DNA of 64,000 bases. Origin: a virus. Its lineage: Duplodnaviria; Caudoviricetes. Position numbers and translations under genes: made by a program. Under the pieces are notes generated by a model that was not told the origin of the DNA, did no database searches, and saw only the letters and a program-made list of their open reading frames with translations. Shown here piece after piece: positions 18,614-32,627 of the stretch (position 1 is the first letter of the stretch; every line of letters begins with the position of its first letter). The DNA lies in the IMG/VR virus record IMGVR_UViG_3300020420_000671; one strand, written 5' to 3'.

Positions 18614-20875
18614 ATGGTTGAACCATCTGAAGAATTACAGGTAGTTTTTGAAAAAGCAAATAAAGATGCTAAAAAGTTAAAACATGATTATGTTACTTTA
18701 GAGCACTTGTTTTTTGCGATGTGTTGTAGTGACAACTTTATGAAGATACTAGAAGGGTATGGAGTAACTATTACAAAACTTAAAGACGAACTACATGACT
18801 ATCTTCAAAACAAATTAGATGATATCAAGAGAACTGACGACAAGCCGTATAAACCAAAGAAAACACAAACTGTTGAAAGAGTCATGAACAGAGCTTTCAC
18901 TCAAGTCTTGTTTAGTGGTAGACAGCATATTGATATTACTGATGTATTTTTATCTATGCTTAATGAGAAAAAATCATTCAGCACATACATTGCGACAGCA
19001 AACGGAGTTAACAAAGATAAGTTTAATGAATATATTAACGCCGAATATGTTAGCACTATCGAAGATGAGGAATTAGCAGGAGTTGCCCAAAGGGCTTTAA
19101 GAGCATTTACGACTAACCTCAATACTAAAGTTACGCAAGGTAAAATAGATCCTGTAATTGGCAGACAAGACGAGCTTGAAACGATATGTTTAAGTTTAGG
19201 TAGGCGTTTAAAGAATAACGTTTTGCTAGTAGGAGATCCAGGCGTTGGTAAAACTGCTATAGCCGAAGGTTTAGCATATAGAATTGTTAACAAAGTTGTT
19301 CCTAAGTTCCTAGAAGAATATAGTGTTTACAATCTAGATATAGGCTCAATGTTAGCAGGCTCTAAATATAGAGGAGACTTTGAAGAAAGATTTAAATTAG
19401 TTATGTCAGCTATTAAAAAGCAAGGCAAAACAATAGTATTCATTGATGAAGCACACATGATTAACGGTGCTGGTGCTGGTGGCGGAAACAGCTCAAATGA
19501 TTTGGCCAATATGTTGAAACCAGCTCTAGGTAAAGGTGACATCAAGGTTGTTGCTTCAACCACTTGGGAAGAATATAGAAAATACTTTGAGAAAGATAGA
19601 GCACTAATGCGTAGATTTCAACGTGTAAGTGTTGATGAACCTGATAAGAAAACTTCAGAAGATATCCTTAAAGGTATTAAAAAGTATTACGAGGACTTTC
19701 ATAACGTAGTAATTACAGATGAGGCGATTGACGAGTCAATCAAATTAAGTGTCAAATACATGACTGATAAAAAATTACCTGATAAAGCTATTGACTTGAT
19801 TGATCTAGCATGTTCAAGATTTAATTTGAAAGAAAAAGTACCGGAAGTTAAGACTGTAACTCCTGAAGAAATAAAGTTCGAACTTGCTAAGGTAGTAAAT
19901 TTACCTCCAGAACAAATACAACAAAAAGAAACAAATAATTTAAGTAAACTTAATAAAAACTTAAAACTAAATGTATATGGCCAGGATAATGCTATAGATG
20001 AAATAGTTGATAAGATCTTGGTAGCACAGGCAGGACTTAAATCAGAAGATAAACCAATTGGTTCATTTGTTTTCATGGGTCCAACTGGTGTAGGTAAAAC
20101 TGAATTAGCAAAACAATTGGCTAAACATTTAAGCATTAATTTAGCAAGATTTGATATGAGTGAATATCAAGAGAAACATAGTGTAAGTAAGCTGATTGGT
20201 TCACCTCCAGGATATGTTGGTCATGATGAACATTCAGGACAGTTGATTAATAAACTACAGGAACATCCTAATTGTGTATTGTTACTAGATGAAGTAGAAA
20301 AAGCACATCCTGATATTTCGCAAATTCTATTACAGTTAATGGATAACGGAAAAATTACAGGTAGTGACGGTAAAGAAGCAGACGCTAGAAATTGTATTTT
20401 AATATTAACAACTAATCTTGGTGCTGAGCAGGCAGAAAAAAATACAATAGGATTTAGTCAAGATATGGATATCGCTTATGGAGATGAGGAATTTAAAAGA
20501 TTCTTTGCTCCTGAATTTAGAAATAGACTTGACGGTGTTGTTGTGTTTGGAAAACTAGACAAACCAATTATGTTAAAAATTGTTGGAAAATTCCTAGTTG
20601 AGTTGAGAAATATGTTAACGGATAAAAATGTAAAATGTGAAATATCTGATTCTGCTTTAGATCATCTAGTCGATAATGGGTTTGATAGCAAGATGGGTGC
20701 TAGACCTATGCAGAGATACATAGACAAAAACATTAAACGTCCTTTAAGTAAATTACTGTTGTTCGGTGAATTAAAAGATGGCGGCACAGTAAAAATTGAT
20801 ATTGAAAAAGATCAAATAAAACTTATTCCACTAGAAAAAAAGGTCACCCATGTTACTGAAAAAGAAAACAGCTAG
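18614..20875 (+). CDS. clpA: ClpA-type Hsp100 ATPase
   Basis: Clp-N domain, two AAA+ modules (GDPGVGKT, GPTGVGKT), no ClpB middle domain, IGF loop (NTIGF), GARPM. Confidence 0.92.
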   Translation: MVEPSEELQVVFEKANKDAKKLKHDYVTLEHLFFAMCCSDNFMKILEGYGVTITKLKDELHDYLQNKLDDIKRTDDKPYKPKKTQTVERVMNRAFTQVLFSGRQHIDITDVFLSMLNEKKSFSTYIATANGVNKDKFNEYINAEYVSTIEDEELAGVAQRALRAFTTNLNTKVTQGKIDPVIGRQDELETICLSLGRRLKNNVLLVGDPGVGKTAIAEGLAYRIVNKVVPKFLEEYSVYNLDIGSMLAGSKYRGDFEERFKLVMSAIKKQGKTIVFIDEAHMINGAGAGGGNSSNDLANMLKPALGKGDIKVVASTTWEEYRKYFEKDRALMRRFQRVSVDEPDKKTSEDILKGIKKYYEDFHNVVITDEAIDESIKLSVKYMTDKKLPDKAIDLIDLACSRFNLKEKVPEVKTVTPEEIKFELAKVVNLPPEQIQQKETNNLSKLNKNLKLNVYGQDNAIDEIVDKILVAQAGLKSEDKPIGSFVFMGPTGVGKTELAKQLAKHLSINLARFDMSEYQEKHSVSKLIGSPPGYVGHDEHSGQLINKLQEHPNCVLLLDEVEKAHPDISQILLQLMDNGKITGSDGKEADARNCILILTTNLGAEQAEKNTIGFSQDMDIAYGDEEFKRFFAPEFRNRLDGVVVFGKLDKPIMLKIVGKFLVELRNMLTDKNVKCEISDSALDHLVDNGFDSKMGARPMQRYIDKNIKRPLSKLLLFGELKDGGTVKIDIEKDQIKLIPLEKKVTHVTEKENS

Positions 20876-23672: not shown

Positions 23673-24542
23673 ATGACAAAAACATTTAAAGATTATCTAA
23701 AAGAAAGCGGTTTACAGTACTATACTGGTGTTAAAAAACACGGTGAAGAGTACATGAAAAAAGCGGCTAAAGCAGGTCGTGAAGGAGCTAGCCAAGAAGA
23801 ACTAGGACGCCTAAAGGACAAATACAGTAAAGCAGAAAAGAATAAAAAAACTACTGAAGCTGATATGCAACGTGGCATGGGTGCTTTAGATAAATTTAGA
23901 GAATTATATAGAAAAGGTATTGGCACAAATGATGACGAAGTTGTTTTGAAAGAGTTGATTGACGTAATTAATGATGATACTTTACAAGATGATTTTCCAC
24001 AACTTAAATCTTTTACAAGTGCATCACCGTTTGACGACTCAGAGATAGTCCAAGCAAAAGATGTACCTGGAAATAGTGCTGATGAAAAAATTATGTCACT
24101 CATAAAAGCAATTGATGATGATTCATGGGTAGATGGTTTCGCTCAAATGTTGACGAAAGATTTCAACATGAGTGATAATGAAGAACTTGATAGAGTTCAG
24201 GAACTTGCTGGTGTACAAACAAATGAAGAAACATATGATGGAGATGATTTCTATAATAACTATGGTGACATGTGGTACAACGAAGATGAGATCATGGACG
24301 AAGCAGAATATCAAGGACGTAAAGTAAAGCTAGGCAAACCAATGCGTGGCGATGTAAAAAAGTTCAAAGTATACGTTAAAGATCCAAAAACTAAAAATGT
24401 TAAAAAAGTAAACTTTGGTGATCCTAACATGAAAATTAAAAAATCTAATCCGGCACGTAGAAGAAGTTTCCGTGCTAGACACAACTGTGATAATCCAGGA
24501 CCAAGAACAAAAGCTAGATATTGGTCATGTAGGAAATGGTAA
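23673..24542 (+). CDS. Putative internal head protein (T4-like CTS) with C-terminal basic two-Cys module
   Basis: MTKTFKDYLKE closely resembles T4 IP leaders; late box GATAAATA at 23636; C-terminal AEYQGRKVKLGKP...RYWSCRKW. Confidence 0.6.
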   Translation: MTKTFKDYLKESGLQYYTGVKKHGEEYMKKAAKAGREGASQEELGRLKDKYSKAEKNKKTTEADMQRGMGALDKFRELYRKGIGTNDDEVVLKELIDVINDDTLQDDFPQLKSFTSASPFDDSEIVQAKDVPGNSADEKIMSLIKAIDDDSWVDGFAQMLTKDFNMSDNEELDRVQELAGVQTNEETYDGDDFYNNYGDMWYNEDEIMDEAEYQGRKVKLGKPMRGDVKKFKVYVKDPKTKNVKKVNFGDPNMKIKKSNPARRRSFRARHNCDNPGPRTKARYWSCRKW

Positions 24543-24896
24543 ATGAAAATATTTGAAATTTTTAATAAAGAAATAGAAGATAAAATGCCCTACGATGTAG
24601 TAGATGACGTTCATTTTCATTTGCTTAATGACGATATGTTTTATAGAAAATATTATCTTCCGTGTATGGAAAAAATAAGAGCAGAGAAAAATGAAAAAGT
24701 GATTCAAGGTCATATGGATCCTATGATCCATAAAGGAATCAATCATTATGTTATAAAATATGACATAGATAAAACACCCACTGATTTAATGACTCCAGAG
24801 GAAGTAAAATCATTAAAGGACAGGGTTTTGGATCACGAACGAAATCCTGATAAGGAGTTACAAAGTGCACCTGAGACAGATATTCGAAGACCGTAA
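24543..24896 (+). CDS. Putative internal head protein
   Basis: Leader MKIFEIFNKE. Confidence 0.5.
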   Translation: MKIFEIFNKEIEDKMPYDVVDDVHFHLLNDDMFYRKYYLPCMEKIRAEKNEKVIQGHMDPMIHKGINHYVIKYDIDKTPTDLMTPEEVKSLKDRVLDHERNPDKELQSAPETDIRRP

Positions 24897-25749
24897 AACG
24901 GCTGTCTTTGCTTTAGGTAGACTGAATCCAGCTACCATTGGCCATGAAAGACTAGTTAACAAAATCAAAGAACAAAAAGGTGATCCTTTCCTTTTCTTAA
25001 CTGACCGACCATCAAAATTACCTGACGATCCTTTAGCACCGCAAGAAAAATTAGAGTGGGCACAAAAAAGTTTTGACGGAATACAAATTAGATTAGCAAA
25101 AACAATAGCTACAGCGGCAAATCAATTATATAGACAAGGTTACAATGAAATTACATTCTTAGAAGGTGAAGATAAATTATTTAATATACTTAAAAATTAC
25201 AACGGAAAGTTTGATGGCAAAAAAGGTCCTATTGAATTTCCCTTTAAGTTCGATAAATTAAATTACGTTAGGCTAGAAAGAAATGCTGACGATCCTGGTG
25301 CTTCAGGAATGAGTGCTACAAAGCTAAGACAATTTGCTCAAAATAATGATCTAGAAAAATTTACTTCAGGACTAGCTCAAAAGGCACAACCAAATGCGGA
25401 AAAAATGATGCGTCAGTTACAAGGAGCATTAGGTGTTGATCCTGTTGAAGAAGATTTACAAGAGCTAGAAGTAAAACAGCAAAAACCAAAGATAGATGTA
25501 TTGAATAACATTGCCGCAAGGACAGATGGAAGACCTTTTCCTTTGAGTTGGAACGCAGGTAAAGATGAAATATCAGTTGGAGGTAAAATGTTTGTATCTC
25601 CAAAGACAGCAAATAAATTTTTACGTTTCTTCGATAATCAAGAAAAGGAAAATCAAGAACTTATGAAAAAAGCACTAGGAAGTGCTAAAACAGCCGCTCA
25701 GCTTTTTAAAAATTTAGGCTTTGAATTTAAACTTGATATGGAGAGATAA
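24865..25749 (+). CDS. HIGH-superfamily nucleotidyltransferase (cytidyltransferase-like) with CTS-like leader
   Basis: GTG start after AAGGAG; MHLRQIFE; GRLNPATIGH (HIGH-like) and GMSATKLR (KMSKS-like). Confidence 0.75.
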   Translation: MHLRQIFEDRKTAVFALGRLNPATIGHERLVNKIKEQKGDPFLFLTDRPSKLPDDPLAPQEKLEWAQKSFDGIQIRLAKTIATAANQLYRQGYNEITFLEGEDKLFNILKNYNGKFDGKKGPIEFPFKFDKLNYVRLERNADDPGASGMSATKLRQFAQNNDLEKFTSGLAQKAQPNAEKMMRQLQGALGVDPVEEDLQELEVKQQKPKIDVLNNIAARTDGRPFPLSWNAGKDEISVGGKMFVSPKTANKFLRFFDNQEKENQELMKKALGSAKTAAQLFKNLGFEFKLDMER

Positions 25750-25961
25750 TGGATATTAAAACTCTTCAAAAACTTGCTGGCATAAATGAATTTCAAGGTT
25801 ACAGACCTGTTAGCATAGAAAATATGAGTCATACTGCTAGTGCTTTGAAGGCAAAGGAAAAGCGTTTAGGAGTAAAACCAGGCGATCGCGATTGGTTCAA
25901 GTTGTGGTTTAACTTACCTTACCTTACTGGTCCTGCTCAATTTAGGAGTAGAAAGAAATGA
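25749..25961 (+). CDS. Small putative internal head protein
   Basis: MDIKTLQKLAGINE; basic remainder. Confidence 0.55.
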   Translation: MDIKTLQKLAGINEFQGYRPVSIENMSHTASALKAKEKRLGVKPGDRDWFKLWFNLPYLTGPAQFRSRKK

Positions 25962-26506
25962 AAATAAGACAAATTTTTGAAGCAGTTGAAGGTAAACTAG
26001 AACTAACAAAATTGCCTTATAAAACAGGAGATCTTTCTCCAGTTCTTTCTAAGGACAATGTAGAATATCATTATAATGTGCTATCCAAAGGATATGTAAA
26101 TAGATATAATAATCAAGAAGGTGATCCAAAATTTAATTATGGTGGTGCTATGTTACACAATTTATTTTGGTCACAACTAAAGAAACCAGCAGGGTCAAAT
26201 TTACCTACAGGAGCAATTAAAAATTTAATTGAAGAAAACCATGAAGACTATTCTACGTTTAAAAATAGCGTGGTAGTTTTAGCAATGGGTATACAAGGTA
26301 GTGGTTGGGTCTATCTATCAAAAAACGGAGATCTTAAAACAACTCCTAATCAAAGTTATAAAACAGATATACTAATGCCTATAGATATGTGGGAACATAG
26401 TTTTACTGATTATATTCCGGCAAAAGATGCTAAGAAAAAGTATTTACAAAACATATTTAAGATAGTAAACTGGGACGTAATAAACAATAGGATAGACGGA
26501 AAATGA
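25958..26506 (+). CDS. Fe/Mn superoxide dismutase with CTS-like leader
   Basis: MKIRQIFEAVE; LPYKTGDLSPVLS, YHY, LHNLFW, GSGWVYL, DMWEH (all four metal ligands present). Confidence 0.88.
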   Translation: MKIRQIFEAVEGKLELTKLPYKTGDLSPVLSKDNVEYHYNVLSKGYVNRYNNQEGDPKFNYGGAMLHNLFWSQLKKPAGSNLPTGAIKNLIEENHEDYSTFKNSVVVLAMGIQGSGWVYLSKNGDLKTTPNQSYKTDILMPIDMWEHSFTDYIPAKDAKKKYLQNIFKIVNWDVINNRIDGK

Positions 26507-29500
26507 AATTTGGTGATTTCAAAGTAAAAGAAGAAGCCGCTGGCGTTGGCATAATTACAAAACAAAACGCAACCAAAGATGTTCCTGTTGGCGGTGAATA
26601 TATGAATGTGAAAAAACTTGGTTTGGGCAAAGGTAAGCCAAAAAAACATCCTAAAAAAGTACGAGGATCAAAGACCAATGTATTATTCAATTTAGGAATG
26701 GCCGAGAAGGAAGACAAAGGCGAAGACATGAAAGGTTTTGATCCTGAAACAGTACAAGCCCTAGCTAGACTTAGATCCAAATATCCACATGCCAAAGATC
26801 CGTTAGACGCACTTCTAAAATCAGTTCTTGCTACAGATAGAGATAACGATGCTGTTGACGATACGCAAGATGATAAGATCAGTAAAAACAAAACAACGGT
26901 TAGTAAACTTGAACCTGAGATTATAAGATTAAAAAGCAGATTGAGAGATGTAGAACTTCAGTTGAAAAATAAAGTGAAGGTAGGAGAGGCAGAACAATTA
27001 GACGAATTTATCCCCGCAGTGGCCGCAAGAATTGCTACTAGTGTTTTACCTAACATCGCAAAAAATTCTTCGCACCTAGGAGCCACAGGAGCTGGTACAG
27101 CAATAGGTGATAAGTTATTCAAACAGATTAAAAAAACTAGAAATGCCAATAAAGGTGTAGGACTAAAGGGTAGAAATCTAAGAGCTAAACAACTTTCACA
27201 AACCAATGAAGTTACAGCAAAGGATTTAAGTAGCGACAGCGAAGTTTACGTCGATATGGATGGCGTTCTAGCTGATTTCTTTGGTGCTTGGAAAAAACTT
27301 GTAGGTAAAGATTGGCGACAAATAAAAGATTTAGATGGAGCGTTACAGAAGATTAGGGATAAGGAAGATTTTTGGTTAAACATTCCTATTACTTCAAATG
27401 CTATGAATCTTTTAAATTTGATAAAAGAACTTAAAGGCAAATATAATATATTAAGTGCTCCTCTTCCAAACGATCCTAATGCTGAACCCCACAAACGTGA
27501 ATGGATCAAAAAGAATCTATCAGCCTTTCCACCGAGCAAGGTTATAATTACATCTAATAAAGCAGTACACGCTACCCAACCAGACGGAACACCAAACATC
27601 CTAATAGATGACTTTGGGAAAAATATTGAAAAATGGGAAGCGGCAGGCGGTGTTGGATTCAAACACAAGGATCACAAGTTTGAAAGAACTGTTAAAAATC
27701 TTAAACAAAATATGAAAGAAGATCTAGAAGAGCAACAGTTAGATGAATTTTTTCAATATTTTAAAATGTTAAAATATGGTTGGAAAACAGGCATGTGGCT
27801 GTGGAACAACAAATGGGCTATTGCGTTTATAGGCATTTCTTACAAGGCTTTTAAATGGGTTGCTGATGCTATAGCATGGCTTAAACCCTTCCTTGACAAT
27901 CCAGTAGTAAAAGCATTAGGAAGATATGGATTACCTGCTATAGGAGTTGCTATTGCGTTATATGGTGGAAAAAAACTATACGACCAAATAACAAAAGCAG
28001 AGAACGAAAAAGACTTGGAAAAAATATTAGCAAACTTTGAAGCAGATCAAGAAGAACTTGCTATGCTTAAAAAAGAATTAGAAATTATATCGAAAAAAAG
28101 CAAAACTACTGAAGCAAAAATGAGCAAAGATTCCATTAAAAGCATACACAAAACAGCTGACAAAATTAAAGATAAACCAAAAGCCAAAAAGTCAATAGGC
28201 AATTGGGCAAAAGAAAGAGGAATGGATCCTGAAGGAGCAATTTACGCAATAGCTACAAATATGAAAAAGCGTAAGCAAGGAAAAAAAATTACAGGATTAG
28301 GCAAGGAGTCTTACACAAGAGATGAACTTCCACAAATAAGTCAAAAACATTTAGTGAAGATTCCGCACACGATGGAAACTGTTTATGTCAAAGACATAGT
28401 CCCAGTACAAAAAGAAAGATTAAAAGAAAATCATAAAAAACAACTTTACAAAATACTAGATGGAAGATTTAATCCTATTGTGGTAGACTGTTACGATAGA
28501 ATAGTCAACGGTCATCACAGATATGACATCCTTAAAATGCTTCAGATGGAAAGCATTACAGTTGCTAAACTTCCTTTTACATTAGAATTTTTATTAGAAA
28601 TAACTAGAAGAGATTTCTTAAAAGGGCTTGGCGCCACAGCGGCAATGTCCATGGTACCGAAGGCCGCAAAAGCGTTGGCCAACAACAAGGAACAATGGTA
28701 TGTTATAGATGAAAAAGGCAGATTACAAGGACCTATGGATAGTAATAAAGCAAAAACTGTATCCATTGCTTATCCAAAAAAATTACCGGCTATAGAACCT
28801 GCTCCTGAAGGTTTTGAAATAATAATTGCCCAAGGATCAAGTACTAAATTGAATATGGCTTTTACAAAAGCCGAGTTTGCTATAAAGAAAATATATGCTA
28901 GAAGATTTCCTGGAAAGACTGTGAATGTAAATCGCAAAATAATTAAATTACAGGGTAGAGCAATAGAGGCGGCAGGTTCATCTTATGTAGCTACTCAGAG
29001 TGCTTATGTTAAGAAAACTACAGAAGAAAGCGTTGAAGAAGGAAATTTATTATCAAATCCACAGAACTCTATTTTGGTTAGAAAAAAAGATGGTTATGAC
29101 CATTATAAACTTGCCACGCACATAGCAAACATAAAAGGAATGTCACCAAAGGTTGCCGCTAGGAATAAGCAAGACATATTCATTCAATTTTATGGTGGTG
29201 AAAAAGAAAAACAATACATGATGAAAAATCTTAAACGTATAGGATATGATGTACAACCTGCTGATGGATATAAAGATACACATTTCGACGAAAACATAGA
29301 CGGATCATACATATTAAGAGTGAGAGAAAATTTTGCTGATGGTAAGAAAAAAGGTAAAAGTAGACCAGGACGTGTTAAACGTTCAGGAGCAAGTTGTAAA
29401 GGATCAGTTACAAGTTTAAGAGCAAAAGCAAAGAAAGCATCAGGTGAACGTGCTAAGATGTATCATTGGTGTGCTAATATGAAGGGTGGTAAAAAGAAAA

Positions 29501-30423
29501 CTGAAGCATATACCCAAGATGAATTTTTTAAAATTTTAGTAGAAAGTACTCCACAACAGCTCGAAGAAGGTATAGCAGATACACTTAAAAAACTTCCTAA
29601 GAATTTATTATCAAAAGTGACACCTATAATTAAAAAGATCCCAAAGACAGCAAAAAATTTAACCTTAATGGCAGTATTGCTTGGTACAATGGTAAATGCT
29701 GTTGCGGCAGGAGATATGGCCAAAGTCAATACACCACTTGATAAACTTAATAATATGACAACTATGAGCACTACAATGGACACAGGTACTGATGCTGACG
29801 TTGGGCCAGGGCATACAATGCCTGACAAAATAAAGGTATTAAAAATGCCAACACCTCCACCAGCACCGGGTGCAGATACTCCAGATGGAACAAAAAATGA
29901 TGGTACAAACACACAGACAACAAAAGATGGTAATCGTACTGTGTCAAGTGGAGCAGGTACATATACATTTTCACCAGATGGGAAATTATTAAAGTATGAA
30001 ACTCCTAAAATAAAAGGATATCAACAAATACATGATCTAGTTAAAAAAACAGTCACAGTTGATGCTAATACATCTGTTACAATGGACAAAGATTTTGGTA
30101 ACTTATCCAAAGCAGATAAAGAATTATTGAAAAAGAATGATCCTAATTTTGATAAAAGTACATCAGTAATAGATCAAAAAGCAACTTATGACATGAGCGG
30201 TAACCTTATAAGCAAAGATCATACTGGTATAAAGTCCGGAGCAGTATCGATTGGTATTGGTGGAGATGGAAATAAGAGTTTTAAATTTGACGCAGGAGGA
30301 GGAAAGGTATATAAAGCAAGTAGTGCCGATATGCCAGCGGCTAAGAAAACTTTAAGCAAAATGCAGACGGATTTGAACAAAGCAAAAGATCAGAGTGCGC
30401 CATTTGCAAACAAATCGACCTAG
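26503..30423 (+). CDS. Modular polyprotein (HAD 5'-nucleotidase, membrane segment, ParB/Srx-like domain, Tat-signal domain, basic module, Sec-signal domain)
   Basis: DMDGVLADF...ILIDD HAD motifs; PIVVD...IVNGHHR ParB-like motif; TRRDFLKG; modules bounded by xLxE-type linkers. Confidence 0.7.
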   Translation: MKFGDFKVKEEAAGVGIITKQNATKDVPVGGEYMNVKKLGLGKGKPKKHPKKVRGSKTNVLFNLGMAEKEDKGEDMKGFDPETVQALARLRSKYPHAKDPLDALLKSVLATDRDNDAVDDTQDDKISKNKTTVSKLEPEIIRLKSRLRDVELQLKNKVKVGEAEQLDEFIPAVAARIATSVLPNIAKNSSHLGATGAGTAIGDKLFKQIKKTRNANKGVGLKGRNLRAKQLSQTNEVTAKDLSSDSEVYVDMDGVLADFFGAWKKLVGKDWRQIKDLDGALQKIRDKEDFWLNIPITSNAMNLLNLIKELKGKYNILSAPLPNDPNAEPHKREWIKKNLSAFPPSKVIITSNKAVHATQPDGTPNILIDDFGKNIEKWEAAGGVGFKHKDHKFERTVKNLKQNMKEDLEEQQLDEFFQYFKMLKYGWKTGMWLWNNKWAIAFIGISYKAFKWVADAIAWLKPFLDNPVVKALGRYGLPAIGVAIALYGGKKLYDQITKAENEKDLEKILANFEADQEELAMLKKELEIISKKSKTTEAKMSKDSIKSIHKTADKIKDKPKAKKSIGNWAKERGMDPEGAIYAIATNMKKRKQGKKITGLGKESYTRDELPQISQKHLVKIPHTMETVYVKDIVPVQKERLKENHKKQLYKILDGRFNPIVVDCYDRIVNGHHRYDILKMLQMESITVAKLPFTLEFLLEITRRDFLKGLGATAAMSMVPKAAKALANNKEQWYVIDEKGRLQGPMDSNKAKTVSIAYPKKLPAIEPAPEGFEIIIAQGSSTKLNMAFTKAEFAIKKIYARRFPGKTVNVNRKIIKLQGRAIEAAGSSYVATQSAYVKKTTEESVEEGNLLSNPQNSILVRKKDGYDHYKLATHIANIKGMSPKVAARNKQDIFIQFYGGEKEKQYMMKNLKRIGYDVQPADGYKDTHFDENIDGSYILRVRENFADGKKKGKSRPGRVKRSGASCKGSVTSLRAKAKKASGERAKMYHWCANMKGGKKKTEAYTQDEFFKILVESTPQQLEEGIADTLKKLPKNLLSKVTPIIKKIPKTAKNLTLMAVLLGTMVNAVAAGDMAKVNTPLDKLNNMTTMSTTMDTGTDADVGPGHTMPDKIKVLKMPTPPPAPGADTPDGTKNDGTNTQTTKDGNRTVSSGAGTYTFSPDGKLLKYETPKIKGYQQIHDLVKKTVTVDANTSVTMDKDFGNLSKADKELLKKNDPNFDKSTSVIDQKATYDMSGNLISKDHTGIKSGAVSIGIGGDGNKSFKFDAGGGKVYKASSADMPAAKKTLSKMQTDLNKAKDQSAPFANKST

Positions 30424-30444
30424 GAAATAAAGGTAAATAATACT

Positions 30445-30663
30445 ATGTTAGTTAGAGAAATAATTAAGGAATACGCTACACAAGGAGCGACTGTCGCAGG
30501 TAATGTACCAGCAGTAGCGAACCCTAGTATGGCTTATGGACATAGACCTAAGGGTAAAAATGGCTTACCACAAGCTCCACAAAAGAAAAACAAGGATGGA
30601 ACAGCTAAAAACGCATTGGATATTAGTAACAATTTAATGGGCGGTAAGACCATTAAGAGATAA
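30445..30663 (+). CDS. Small basic putative internal head protein
   Basis: GTAAATA box 6 nt before ATG; leader MLVREIIKE. Confidence 0.55.
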   Translation: MLVREIIKEYATQGATVAGNVPAVANPSMAYGHRPKGKNGLPQAPQKKNKDGTAKNALDISNNLMGGKTIKR

Positions 30664-30682
30664 ATACTAAAAAGGAAGCAAA

Positions 30683-31618
30683 ATGAGAGAAAAGGACCTT
30701 AAAGAAGATTTAGCAACGCTGGCTTACAAAGCCGAAGCAGACCATGAAGTACAGATGGCTAGATCAGATCTATATAAAATAGCCAAATACTCTATCAAGC
30801 TACACGAAATGATGAAGGGTGTAACTGAGCAAGAGGGTATTGAAGGTTGGGTTCAATCTAAAATTACAAAAGCCGCAGATTACATAGGTTCAGTATACCA
30901 TTATCTAGACTATGAAATGAAGTTTGATGAAATGACTGAAGCTAAAAAAGCAAAACCAGATTACATTGATATTGACGGCGATGGCGATAAAAAAGAGCCA
31001 ATGAAAAAAGCAGTCAAGGATAAAGCTAAGAAGAAAAAAGTTAAAGAAGGTATGATGGACGACGAAGTAAAATCCATACTTATGAAGCATCCAAAAGAAT
31101 TCGCAAAACTGAGAGCATCAGAAGATTTGATGGACGTTTATGGCACTCCGTTATATCAAGAATTGTTTGAATATTTTTCAGATTCAGGTGAAATGCCATA
31201 TGGTACTCAAAAGGGCAGAGACGGTGATCCTGTCCAGTGGATGAACGATGAGCTAGATGACATGGGTGTATTTGACCAACCAGAAAAAATGAATGTATCA
31301 GCCGCAGACAAAAGATTAAACACACCTGCTTTCAAAAAAATGCAAGCCGGAGATAAACGTTATAGTGATAAAACTGAAGAAACATACGAAAGTTATCTAC
31401 AGGAAAAACTTAACAAAACAAGAAAGTATAAAACACTACTGGAATCTGTTGGAAAACCAATTTCAGAAGAAGAATTTGACACCCTTGCTGAGAAACAAGA
31501 TGCTTGTTATCACAAGGTAAAGTCCAGATACAAAGTTTGGCCTAGCGCCTATGCCTCTGGTGCTCTAGTTCAGTGCCGTAAAAAGGGTGCTAAGAACTGG
31601 GGTAACAAGAGCAAGTGA
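30683..31618 (+). CDS. Modular putative internal head protein
   Basis: GATAAATA box at 30659; MREKDLKE; DIDGDGD Ca-binding-like loop; C-terminal KQDAC...VQCRKKGAKNWG module. Confidence 0.55.
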   Translation: MREKDLKEDLATLAYKAEADHEVQMARSDLYKIAKYSIKLHEMMKGVTEQEGIEGWVQSKITKAADYIGSVYHYLDYEMKFDEMTEAKKAKPDYIDIDGDGDKKEPMKKAVKDKAKKKKVKEGMMDDEVKSILMKHPKEFAKLRASEDLMDVYGTPLYQELFEYFSDSGEMPYGTQKGRDGDPVQWMNDELDDMGVFDQPEKMNVSAADKRLNTPAFKKMQAGDKRYSDKTEETYESYLQEKLNKTRKYKTLLESVGKPISEEEFDTLAEKQDACYHKVKSRYKVWPSAYASGALVQCRKKGAKNWGNKSK

Positions 31619-32388
31619 AACTAAGACAACTCATAAGCATTATCGAAAACGCTGACCAAGACAGTACAGAAGTCACTGTTGGCAATTATACCACAACACA
31701 TTTTTATATGTGTGGAAGTGCGATCAAGACAGCAGAAAAACACGGGGAAAAGCCCGGTATGGAAGATTTAGTCCGTTTACAAGATATGATTTATAAACTT
31801 GAAAAAGCAGTTATGGATACTGGCGAAGCAACATCTGAAGCAAAACAATTTGCTCAAAAATTACATAACGAAATAATGGATAAAGCAAAAGAGATTGGCA
31901 TCGAAGACGAAATTGTTGACTACCAAGAAGATCATAGAGACAGTATTTTAAAAGGCGATCCTAAGCCTGGATTTGGGCGTGTGGATGTTGAAGAAAATTG
32001 GGAAATTACAGATGAAGGTACTAGATGTTGGAAGGGTTATGAACGTAAAGGCATGAAGACCATGTTCGGAAAACGTGTACCTAACTGTGTAAAAAGAGAA
32101 CATGTAGACTATTGTGTGAACTGTGGTGATCTTGTATTTTCAGAAGATATGAATTTACATGAAGATTTAAAAAAATGGTTCAAACAAAAATGGGTCCGCT
32201 TTGGTCCAGACGGAAAAGTACGTGGATCATGCGGAGGAAAAAGTGAAGGTGAAGGAAAGCCAAAGTGTTTACCAGCCGCAAAGGCCTACGCTATGGGCAA
32301 GAAGAAAAGAAAAACTTCTGCCGCTCGTAAACGTAGGAAAGATCCTAATGCAGATAGACGTGGTAAGGCTAAAAACGTTAAAACTTAG
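31615..32388 (+). CDS. Modular putative internal head protein
   Basis: GTG start; MKLRQLISIIE; two basic two-Cys modules following Glu residues. Confidence 0.55.
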   Translation: MKLRQLISIIENADQDSTEVTVGNYTTTHFYMCGSAIKTAEKHGEKPGMEDLVRLQDMIYKLEKAVMDTGEATSEAKQFAQKLHNEIMDKAKEIGIEDEIVDYQEDHRDSILKGDPKPGFGRVDVEENWEITDEGTRCWKGYERKGMKTMFGKRVPNCVKREHVDYCVNCGDLVFSEDMNLHEDLKKWFKQKWVRFGPDGKVRGSCGGKSEGEGKPKCLPAAKAYAMGKKKRKTSAARKRRKDPNADRRGKAKNVKT

Positions 32389-32397
32389 GAGTAGAAT

Positions 32398-32511
32398 ATG
32401 GAAAACACTTGTAAATGCGATAAATGTAATCATGATTGTCACTGTGATACTGAATGCCAAGAATGCGTAAATGATATCTGTACAGGTTGTGAATGCGATC
32501 ACTGCAGATAA
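32398..32511 (+). CDS. Metallothionein-like Cys-rich peptide (37 aa, not in ORF track)
   Basis: AGGAG SD; MENTCKCDKCNHDCHCDTECQECVNDICTGCECDHCR has 11 Cys and 3 His. Confidence 0.65.
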   Translation: MENTCKCDKCNHDCHCDTECQECVNDICTGCECDHCR

Positions 32512-32627
32512 AAGACATACCTATCTACGAAAAGTGGAGTTCTAAATATAAAAAGAGCATAAACTGTTCTAATCCTAAAGGCTTTTCACAAAAAGCTCAT
32601 TGTGCCGGAAAGAAAAAGAAGAAATAA
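32493..32627 (+). CDS. 44-aa CTS-like leader plus basic two-Cys micro-protein (not in ORF track)
   Basis: MRSLQIKDIPIYE|KWSSKYKKSINCSNPKGFSQKAHCAGKKKKK. Confidence 0.6.
   Translation: MRSLQIKDIPIYEKWSSKYKKSINCSNPKGFSQKAHCAGKKKKK

Follow-up and report, generated by a model that had tools for sequence, protein, structure and literature searches.

The window analyzed here is the 64,000-nucleotide viral record IMGVR_UViG_3300020420_000671 of IMG/VR, which between positions 23,673 and 32,627 encodes six different small cationic protein modules distributed over five open reading frames (ORFs). An original prediction made from the sequence alone had described these modules as stretches that directly follow a Glu residue and contain two Cys each, and had proposed that they are cut out of their precursors during maturation of the phage head. 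The description agrees with our analysis, since all six stretches are in frame, stand behind a Glu and contain exactly two Cys. Their net charge ranges from +7 to +21, and their Lys content equals or exceeds their Arg content. The features of the region are compiled in Table 1.

Table 1. Module-bearing precursors, junctions and modules of the window
Feature	Positions	Strand	Supporting observation
289-residue precursor: leader, variable middle, conserved acidic segment, C-terminal module 1	23673..24542	+	phrog_7595 on residues 206-289
Acidic segment ETYDGDDF...NEDEIMDE, directly before module 1, ends in the M-D-E junction; possible anionic pro-piece	24228..24302	+	precedes module 1 in many homologues
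Module 1: 79 residues, Cys at positions 62 and 76 of the module; always C-terminal	24303..24539	+	homologues, AlphaFold2 model, junction statistics
1306-residue polyprotein-like ORF: leader ending in V-K-E, NT5C-like, ParB-like and other parts; module 2 internal	26503..30423	+	parts separate elsewhere
V-R-E junction before module 2	29320..29328	+	
Module 2 (NFADG...HWCANMKGGKKK; Cys spacing 24)	29329..29505	+	>577 viral contigs, 52 unrelated upstream contexts
311-residue precursor: N-terminal helical segment (WVQSKITKAADY), C-terminal module 3	30683..31618	+	segment common to cyanophage T4-GC119 proteins
L-A-E junction before module 3	31484..31492	+	
Module 3 (KQDACYHKVK...PSAYASG...QCRKKG; Cys spacing 22)	31493..31615	+	phage and viral-contig homologues
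257-residue precursor: leader, DYTTTHF domain, module 4, CVNC, module 5	31615..32388	+	
T4-CTS-like leader MKLRQLISIIE of the 257-residue precursor (CTS, capsid targeting sequence)	31615..31647	+	compared with the T4 CTS MKTYQEFIAE (PMC8442874)
Module 4 (GTRCWKGY...VPNCVKRE; predicted beta-hairpin, Cys near both ends)	32017..32100	+	
CVNC pair located in the module 4-5 linker	32113..32124	+	both Cys jointly absent in several homologues
L-H-E junction before module 5	32155..32163	+	
Module 5 (DLKKWF...GSC...PKC... plus basic tail; predicted small alpha/beta domain)	32164..32385	+	phrog_23735, phrog_727
13-residue leader ending in I-Y-E of the 44-residue ORF (32493-32627)	32493..32531	+	elsewhere, stand-alone genes made of a leader and module 6
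Module 6 (KWSSKYKKSINCSNPKGFSQKAHC...; Cys spacing 11), carried by the 44-residue ORF	32532..32624	+	cyanophage records and viral contigs

The window has a G+C content of about 35% and carries nearly every gene on one strand. The nearest counterparts of its family-B DNA polymerase are found in jumbo myoviruses such as Phosso, Atu_ph07 and Vibrio phage 2.275.O (42–50% identity). Since IMG/VR contigs of 205–340 kb encode a polymerase (polB) that is 59–62% identical to that of the window, we assign the window to an uncultured marine jumbo phage of the T4 superfamily. A megablast search yielded no DNA-level match to the window in deposited phage records, and viral and metagenome contigs contained no sequence identical to it. 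The protease and capsid genes discussed below were studied only in relatives such as contig G001.

The modules are widespread; the number of viral contigs exceeds 570 for each of modules 1, 2, 3 and 6. Module 1, which matches phrog_7595, is found in 29 phage records comprising pelagiphages, roseophages, Methylophilales and Flavobacterium phages and also Nitrosopumilaceae spindle-shaped viruses. Its homologues include at least 8000 proteins comparable in length and, at 50% identity, 3914 clusters; in these clusters the module occupies the extreme C-terminus of proteins of 108–756 residues with 85–99% identity behind unlike N-terminal parts. Module 2 has no match among isolated phages; in viral contigs it is retained at 75–97% identity behind dozens of unrelated sequences (Table 1). 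Module 3 is present in 365 phage records, most of them T4-like cyanophages, and in 599 viral contigs, and module 6 in 17 cyanophage records and 572 viral contigs. A search with the 257-residue protein returned 2021 relatives; in these, modules 4 and 5 and the DYTTTHF domain were found recombined with further parts that include a pterin-4a-carbinolamine dehydratase, a zeta/AAA_33-type kinase and a cytidylyltransferase. Because the modules recur joined to many different partner sequences, among them many unrelated N-terminal parts, the shuffling among related phages for which the original prediction had suggested a survey is real and extensive. The 1306-residue ORF gives the impression of several cargo genes joined into one, as its ATKDVPVGG N-terminal segment, NT5C-like nucleotidase and ParB-like domain are each encoded by a gene of their own in other viral contigs, with module 2 at the end of every such gene.

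Homologues of modules 1 and 2 share about 90% amino-acid identity and 75–78% nucleotide identity with the window copies. The proportion of differing synonymous sites (pS) is 0.66–0.74 and thus near saturation, that of nonsynonymous sites (pN) about 0.10; for module 2 the values are 0.66 and 0.10, respectively. The modules are thereby better conserved than the DNA polymerase with its 59–62% identity. Since the synonymous sites are saturated, we rejected a recent horizontal spread as the cause of the high identity and attribute the similarity to long-lasting purifying selection. Judged by these sequence comparisons, the modules are autonomous, ancient and almost invariant mini-domains.

We further compared the residues upstream of the modules in homologues, after removal of similar contexts, with all other Glu residues in the same proteins. 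Numbered backwards from the putative cut, positions P3 to P1 read MDE, VRE, LAE, TDE, LHE and IYE for modules 1 to 6 of the window. P1 is Glu in 75–100% of the non-redundant unrelated contexts and P3 is L, I, V or M in 75–95% of the junctions versus 18–33% at other Glu residues (p 8e-4 to 1e-25); P2 is free, and P4 and P5 are hydrophilic. A P3 residue of this kind was counted for module 1 in 38 of 41 junctions from viral contigs (p 6e-16) and in 60 of 63 from the 50% representatives (p 1e-25), for module 2 in 42/52 (p 1e-17), for module 3 in 6/7 (p 8e-4), for module 4 in 19/24 (p 1e-10), for module 5 in 9/12 (p 9e-5) and for module 6 in 22/26 (p 9e-13). The characterized gp21-family proteases, those of phiKZ, 201phi2-1 and SPN3US among them, all cut after Glu (PMC5694885), and by its pattern the hydrophobic-x-Glu in front of the modules is a T4 gp21-type site. 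Within the 257-residue protein, three of the 23 Glu residues are part of a hydrophobic-x-Glu motif (residues 11, 127 and 183), and all three lie at predicted borders, i.e. at the end of the leader, at the end of the first domain and at the start of module 5. Since homologues in unrelated contexts keep P1 and P3 at these very borders, the Glu borders are real and not an artefact of how the borders were chosen.

Stand-alone homologues of module 1 moreover have a natural N-terminus, Met-Ala-x-Tyr, that falls on the border of the module. Every one of the seven T4-type phages that we examined has module 1 as a fused part behind hydrophobic-x-Glu (the window, G001, HTVC008M, Melnitz, immuto, C48C1 and P0114-type proteins). 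By comparison, module 1 forms a separate leaderless gene that starts with Met-Ala-x-Tyr in all seven podo-, sipho- and archaeal viruses examined, which do not have T4-type heads (HTVC111P, HTVC106P, CRP-3, CRP-901, Kolga, MedDCM-S30-C28 and a Nitrosopumilaceae virus). The start of the stand-alone proteins is exactly the residue that the original prediction had placed behind the cut.

Other stand-alone genes consist of a leader of 8–13 residues followed by one module, for example MRIFEITE or MKIVEITE in front of module 2, MKIKEVISE in front of module 6 and MKIHELLTE in front of module 4. The leader consensus M-K/R-I/L-x-E-I/L-..-E resembles the CTS of T4, which reads MKTYQEFIAE and belongs to a system in which basic internal proteins remain in the head (PMC8442874). 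Compared by pattern only, leaders ending in hydrophobic-x-Glu are likewise present on the 289-, 1306-, 257- and 44-residue ORFs, on neighboring ORFs and on homologues; the leader of the 289-residue precursor comprises residues 1–11 and ends in L-K-E. Such N-termini occur in 12 of the 100 ORFs of the window and are clustered at 16.6 and 22.1–32.6 kb. Because just these 12 clustered ORFs possess them, a general bias at translation starts, or an effect of the start-codon context, was rejected as their cause. Two small ORFs of 70 and 72 residues (25749–25961 and 30445–30663) also have leader-like starts, followed by basic, Cys-free bodies, and may encode further small cargo proteins.

A gene for an S77 protease (Peptidase_S77) is present in nine of 15 large module-bearing contigs. 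The S77 prohead protease was found in all three module-bearing jumbo-phage contigs that are at least 90% complete and also in relatives with 59–62% polB identity. In G001, the protease gene is located between those for the portal, the scaffold and a gp23-type capsid protein, and the N-terminal part of the latter contains L-Q-E where T4 gp23 is cut, according to an alignment made by eye. A module-bearing protein has also been detected in purified virions: out of three cyanophage virion proteomes, one lists T4-GC119 as structural, with 13 peptide counts (PMC3037559, supplementary table 8; Sullivan et al. 2010). By column order and coordinates we assigned this proteome to S-SM1, whose T4-GC119 protein SSM1_115 carries modules 5, 3 and 4. 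The S-SM1 listing reports the protein and not its fragments (PMC3037559).

We employed AlphaFold2 to model module 1. The model reached a predicted local distance difference test score (pLDDT) of 88 and a predicted template modeling score (pTM) of 0.73 and consists of two beta-hairpin strands followed by two Cys-bearing helices, so that module 1 is confidently predicted to be a folded mini-domain. Among solved structures, the best Foldseek match to it had an E-value of 2, and VIA-align on 48,161 chains gave none with Z ≥2; these comparisons led to no functional assignment of the fold. A fold search in BFVD and Atlas returned only the same module at the ends of other viral proteins, where it is combined with XkdF-like, ChaB, peptidoglycan-binding or DUF5872 parts. 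The model of modules 4 and 5 had a pLDDT of 65 and shows module 4 as a beta-hairpin whose two ends each have a Cys close by, and module 5 as a small, partly folded alpha/beta unit; the junction regions and linkers lie below a pLDDT of 50.

Of the 16 Cys in the five precursor proteins, 12 fall within modules, and the modules constitute 14% of the residues (binomial P = 7e-8). The 257-residue protein contains three more Cys outside its modules (residue 33 and the CVNC pair at residues 167/170), which corrects the first reading of this protein. Both Cys were invariant in every copy examined of each module, including 76 of 76 copies of module 3 and 50 of 50 of module 6, apart from one sub-family of module 1. 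In this podovirus sub-family (HTVC111P gp26, L083 2498–2779; MedDCM-OCT-S30-C28, L352 577–852), both Cys and the adjacent His have been lost together, and a longer loop is present instead. Invariance and joint loss suggest that the Cys pair may form a stabilizing disulfide. Of the two kinds of staple originally envisaged, disulfide or metal, a classical metal site is unlikely: each module offers two Cys, and several homologues of module 1 have Met where the neighboring His stands. A zinc site or ribbon within single modules was rejected, since it requires four conserved ligands. Bridging between modules or between chains is possible. Together with the Cys of module 4, the CVNC pair of the linker would total four Cys.

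Scans of whole proteins and single modules against Pfam and NCBIfam gave nothing above threshold, but only weak matches to DUF5754 and DUF5872 and spurious ones; modules 2, 4, 5 and 6 belong to no Pfam family. Among PHROG families, the T4-GC119 families phrog_727 (E = 2.9e-22 and 1.3e-14) and phrog_3477 (E = 1.4e-13) were matched, and tblastn led to the cyanophages S-SM2, S-SM1 and S-SRM01, in whose translations the modules are visible. Against Tlr6F/DUF5754 (PF19058), module 1 scored 14.8 bits and its HTVC008M homologue 12.4 bits, below the gathering threshold of 27.4. The module 1 match covers the KKFKVYV...FG...RRRSF core with E = 0.03, and in neighboring Atlas clusters PF19058 is assigned to 25% of the members. 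We treat a kinship of module 1 with Tlr6F as a lead, not as membership. Tlr6F proteins, whose function is not known, occur in polinton-like viruses, virophages, giant viruses and some phages (PMC4642659, PMC12220804), and a few Tlr6F peptides, below threshold, were seen in PgVV particles (preprint 10.1101/2022.07.28.501842). Like module 1 they are small viral proteins; they differ in that even the stand-alone phage homologues of module 1 stay below the family threshold.

Module 3 reached 19.6 bits with DUF5872 (PF19197) over positions 12–42 of the 116-position profile, short of the threshold of 27.5, and the cyanophage proteins with module 3 gave no match to this family. No module of the window matches DUF6321 (PF19846), which is found in S-SM2 (E = 7e-22) and S-SRM01 (E = 9e-12). 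The T4-GC119 proteins of these two phages (SSM2_109, L001 4698–6824; S-SRM01, L002 3635–5464) also contain DUF192, DUF5661 and a C-terminal DUF6321, whose motif RRxSFCxR ... RxWNC resembles, by eye only, the C-terminal halves of modules 1 and 2. In a literature search of incomplete coverage we found no paper on this set of modules or its junction grammar.

The T4-GC119 proteins ('structural protein'; SSM1_115, SSM2_109 and QPX48171 of S-SRM01) are true homologues built like beads on a string, which share modules 3, 4, 5 and 6 and the helical segment of the 311-residue protein. They form one long leaderless protein encoded in the structural gene block, between g16 and g17 in S-SM2 and S-SRM01, whereas the window distributes its modules over five genes with leaders outside the head gene block. 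The internal proteins of T4 (IPI, IPII, IPIII) together with Alt and the protease gp21 are alike in their short leader ending in hydrophobic-x-Glu, their small and highly basic products, the clustering of their genes in a variable region and the S77 protease, here found in relatives. Pfam, NCBIfam and PHROG scans revealed no sequence similarity to IPI, IPII or IPIII and returned families of unknown function only. The T4 proteins are cut once and vary between phages, while here several near-invariant modules are strung together with enzymes and separated by sites; unlike the T4 proteins, the modules are additionally encoded by genes without a leader in podo-, sipho- and archaeal viruses. Adenovirus pVII and pX (mu) offer a conceptual parallel as small basic DNA-condensing peptides freed in the capsid by the maturation protease, although virus, protease and sequences are unrelated and the adenoviral peptides are Arg-rich and largely disordered compared with the folded module 1. 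The ejection and inner-body proteins of phiKZ, 201phi2-1 and SPN3US are likewise packaged in the head, include some enzymes and are cut after Glu at a three-residue motif (PMC5694885). Their motifs are S/A/G-x-E or A-x-E and their propeptides often exceed 100 residues, and no conserved cationic two-Cys mini-domains have been described for them.

Several observations concern the surroundings of the modules. A leader-bearing Fe/Mn superoxide dismutase gene (25958–26506) adjoins the module 2-bearing polyprotein in the window, and in G001 such a gene (194765–195498) adjoins the module 2 gene as well; the neighborhood is therefore conserved. The DYTTTHF domain (31660–31995, VTVGNYTTTHFYMCGSAI...GFGRVD) is itself a mobile unit that elsewhere is inserted in a cytidylyltransferase or precedes a kinase or module 1, and it follows G/S-x-Glu instead of hydrophobic-x-Glu. 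The module 1 precursor of G001 (160646–161161) has two CxxCxGxG knuckles, a DnaJ-type zinc-finger pattern, between leader and acidic segment. Just upstream of the leader-bearing cluster, the window encodes a 753-residue protein (18614–20875) with two AAA+ regions that matches phrog_4871, 'ATP-dependent protease', with E = 1e-246. The heptamer ATAAATA occurs at 15 sites on the + strand of the window, 14 of which are located 10–36 bases upstream of an ORF start (e.g. 23637, 30660 and 32634), and precedes the 289- and 311-residue genes, among others. It is probably a promoter core resembling the T4 late promoter, and weak as evidence of timing. The T4 late promoter TATAAATA itself is not enriched in the window and is missing from the module cluster.

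On the basis of modularity, the conserved site, the leaders, the S77 protease in relatives and the cyanophage protein detected in virions, we consider it the best-supported reading, with about an even chance of being right, that the modules are freed at Glu by the prohead protease during head maturation and are then kept with the DNA. Precursors with a T4-CTS-like leader would be made in T4-type myoviruses and their jumbo relatives, and the leader would bring the precursor into the assembling prohead. There, the S77 (gp21-type) protease would cut after Glu, so that the leader is taken off and the modules are separated from one another and from their acidic or enzymatic partners. The small cationic modules would remain beside the DNA inside the head and accompany it into the cell; they would bind nucleic acid, and the Cys pair would form a stabilizing disulfide once the virion is in oxic water. 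We infer packaging and cleavage of the modules, and nucleic-acid binding as their likeliest activity, the latter because anti-defence or membrane roles agree less well with their charge, with the virion evidence and with conservation in different hosts. The idea of protamine-like agents fits the cationic character of the modules; module 1, with its confidently predicted fold, is no disordered tail of this kind, module 5 is partly folded in its model, and Lys is at least as frequent as Arg in the modules.

A number of points weigh against this account. Cleavage and packaging of these very proteins are deduced from comparison, not experiment, and the S77 protease is known from relatives only. 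The case for DNA binding consists of charge and conservation across hosts, and that for the disulfide of the invariance of the Cys and their joint loss in HTVC111P and MedDCM-S30-C28. The same leaders stand on enzymes (superoxide dismutase, cytidylyltransferase), the packaging of which would be unusual. The cyanophage T4-GC119 proteins have no leader and yet are found in virions, so a leader is not required for incorporation in cyanophages. At the junctions themselves, the border of module 4 in the window reads T-D-E, with a V-E-E site seven residues upstream, and one sub-family of module 3 lacks the Glu. Finally, the Glu and the hydrophobic P3 residue could be the first residues of the fold or part of the shuffled DNA unit.

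The last point leads to a rival explanation, according to which the modules stay uncut and act as nucleic-acid-binding or anchoring domains of intact proteins that tether enzymes or other partners to DNA or RNA, be it in the virion or in the infected cell. Hydrophobic-x-Glu would then be the conserved structural start of each module or belong to the recombination unit. Modules at the ends of NT5C-like, ParB-like, pterin dehydratase, kinase and peptidoglycan-binding proteins would suit such a role, as would a Glu that is invariant like a domain residue, the leaderless T4-GC119 proteins and a virion proteome that gives the protein and not fragments. However, six different folds obey one and the same P3/P1 rule with a free P2 and hydrophilic P4 and P5, and the stand-alone module 1 of non-T4 viruses dispenses with the P3/P1 residues and begins exactly at P1', the first residue behind the putative cut. 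Furthermore, the leaders end in the same motif directly before the module, and the junctions fall in low-confidence linkers of the model. We regard modules that are never cut as rather unlikely.

Alternatively, the released peptides might be effectors injected against host defence sensors or restriction, like IPI* of T4, or membrane-active peptides that aid entry, both of which the original prediction had considered. The analogy with the T4 internal proteins, which have a common CTS, are basic and are injected, speaks for effectors, and so does the cationic nature of the modules with their Cys pair. Effectors in an arms race diversify fast, though, whereas the modules are about 90% identical at saturated synonymous divergence and are conserved above the polymerase. 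Viruses with these modules infect SAR11, roseobacters, cyanobacteria, flavobacteria, Methylophilales and Nitrosopumilaceae, and since these hosts are so unlike, a host-specific target is unlikely; inhibitors of host sensors are for both reasons disfavored. As regards membrane-active peptides, no typical amphipathic or hydrophobic segment is evident, and module 1 has a compact predicted fold. We consider this group of explanations improbable. That the modules are nothing but Lys-rich low-complexity tails with Glu borders picked by eye, which would profit from Glu making up 5–10% of these proteins so that one is always near, has practically no probability given thousands of homologues, invariant Cys, junction p values down to 1e-25, a confidently predicted fold and purifying selection.

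If the modules are indeed freed in the head, marine T4-type and jumbo phages would possess a general capsid-loading system in which a leader and cut sites are combined with a few cationic peptides that are ultra-conserved. Some marine T4-type and jumbo phages rank among the most abundant viruses of the ocean. Conservation above that of the DNA polymerase together with the spread across virus families points to an unrecognized core function. Release in the head would explain thousands of 'hypothetical' marine viral proteins, predict exact mature N-termini and provide a handle on what travels with the DNA of these phages when it enters key hosts such as SAR11 and cyanobacteria; the grammar of leader and site could also serve to package foreign proteins, as has been done with T4. 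A further-reaching idea, which we put forward as speculative and doubtful, is that the modules, or at any rate module 1 and its possible Tlr6F kin, are pan-viral genome-associated mini-proteins common to tailed phages from many families, archaeal spindle-shaped viruses and perhaps polinton-like and giant viruses, which in T4-type phages have become a library of freely recombining, protease-released cargo that brings enzymes into the capsid as well. Such a set would amount to a common, previously unrecognized layer of virion chromatin across virus realms.

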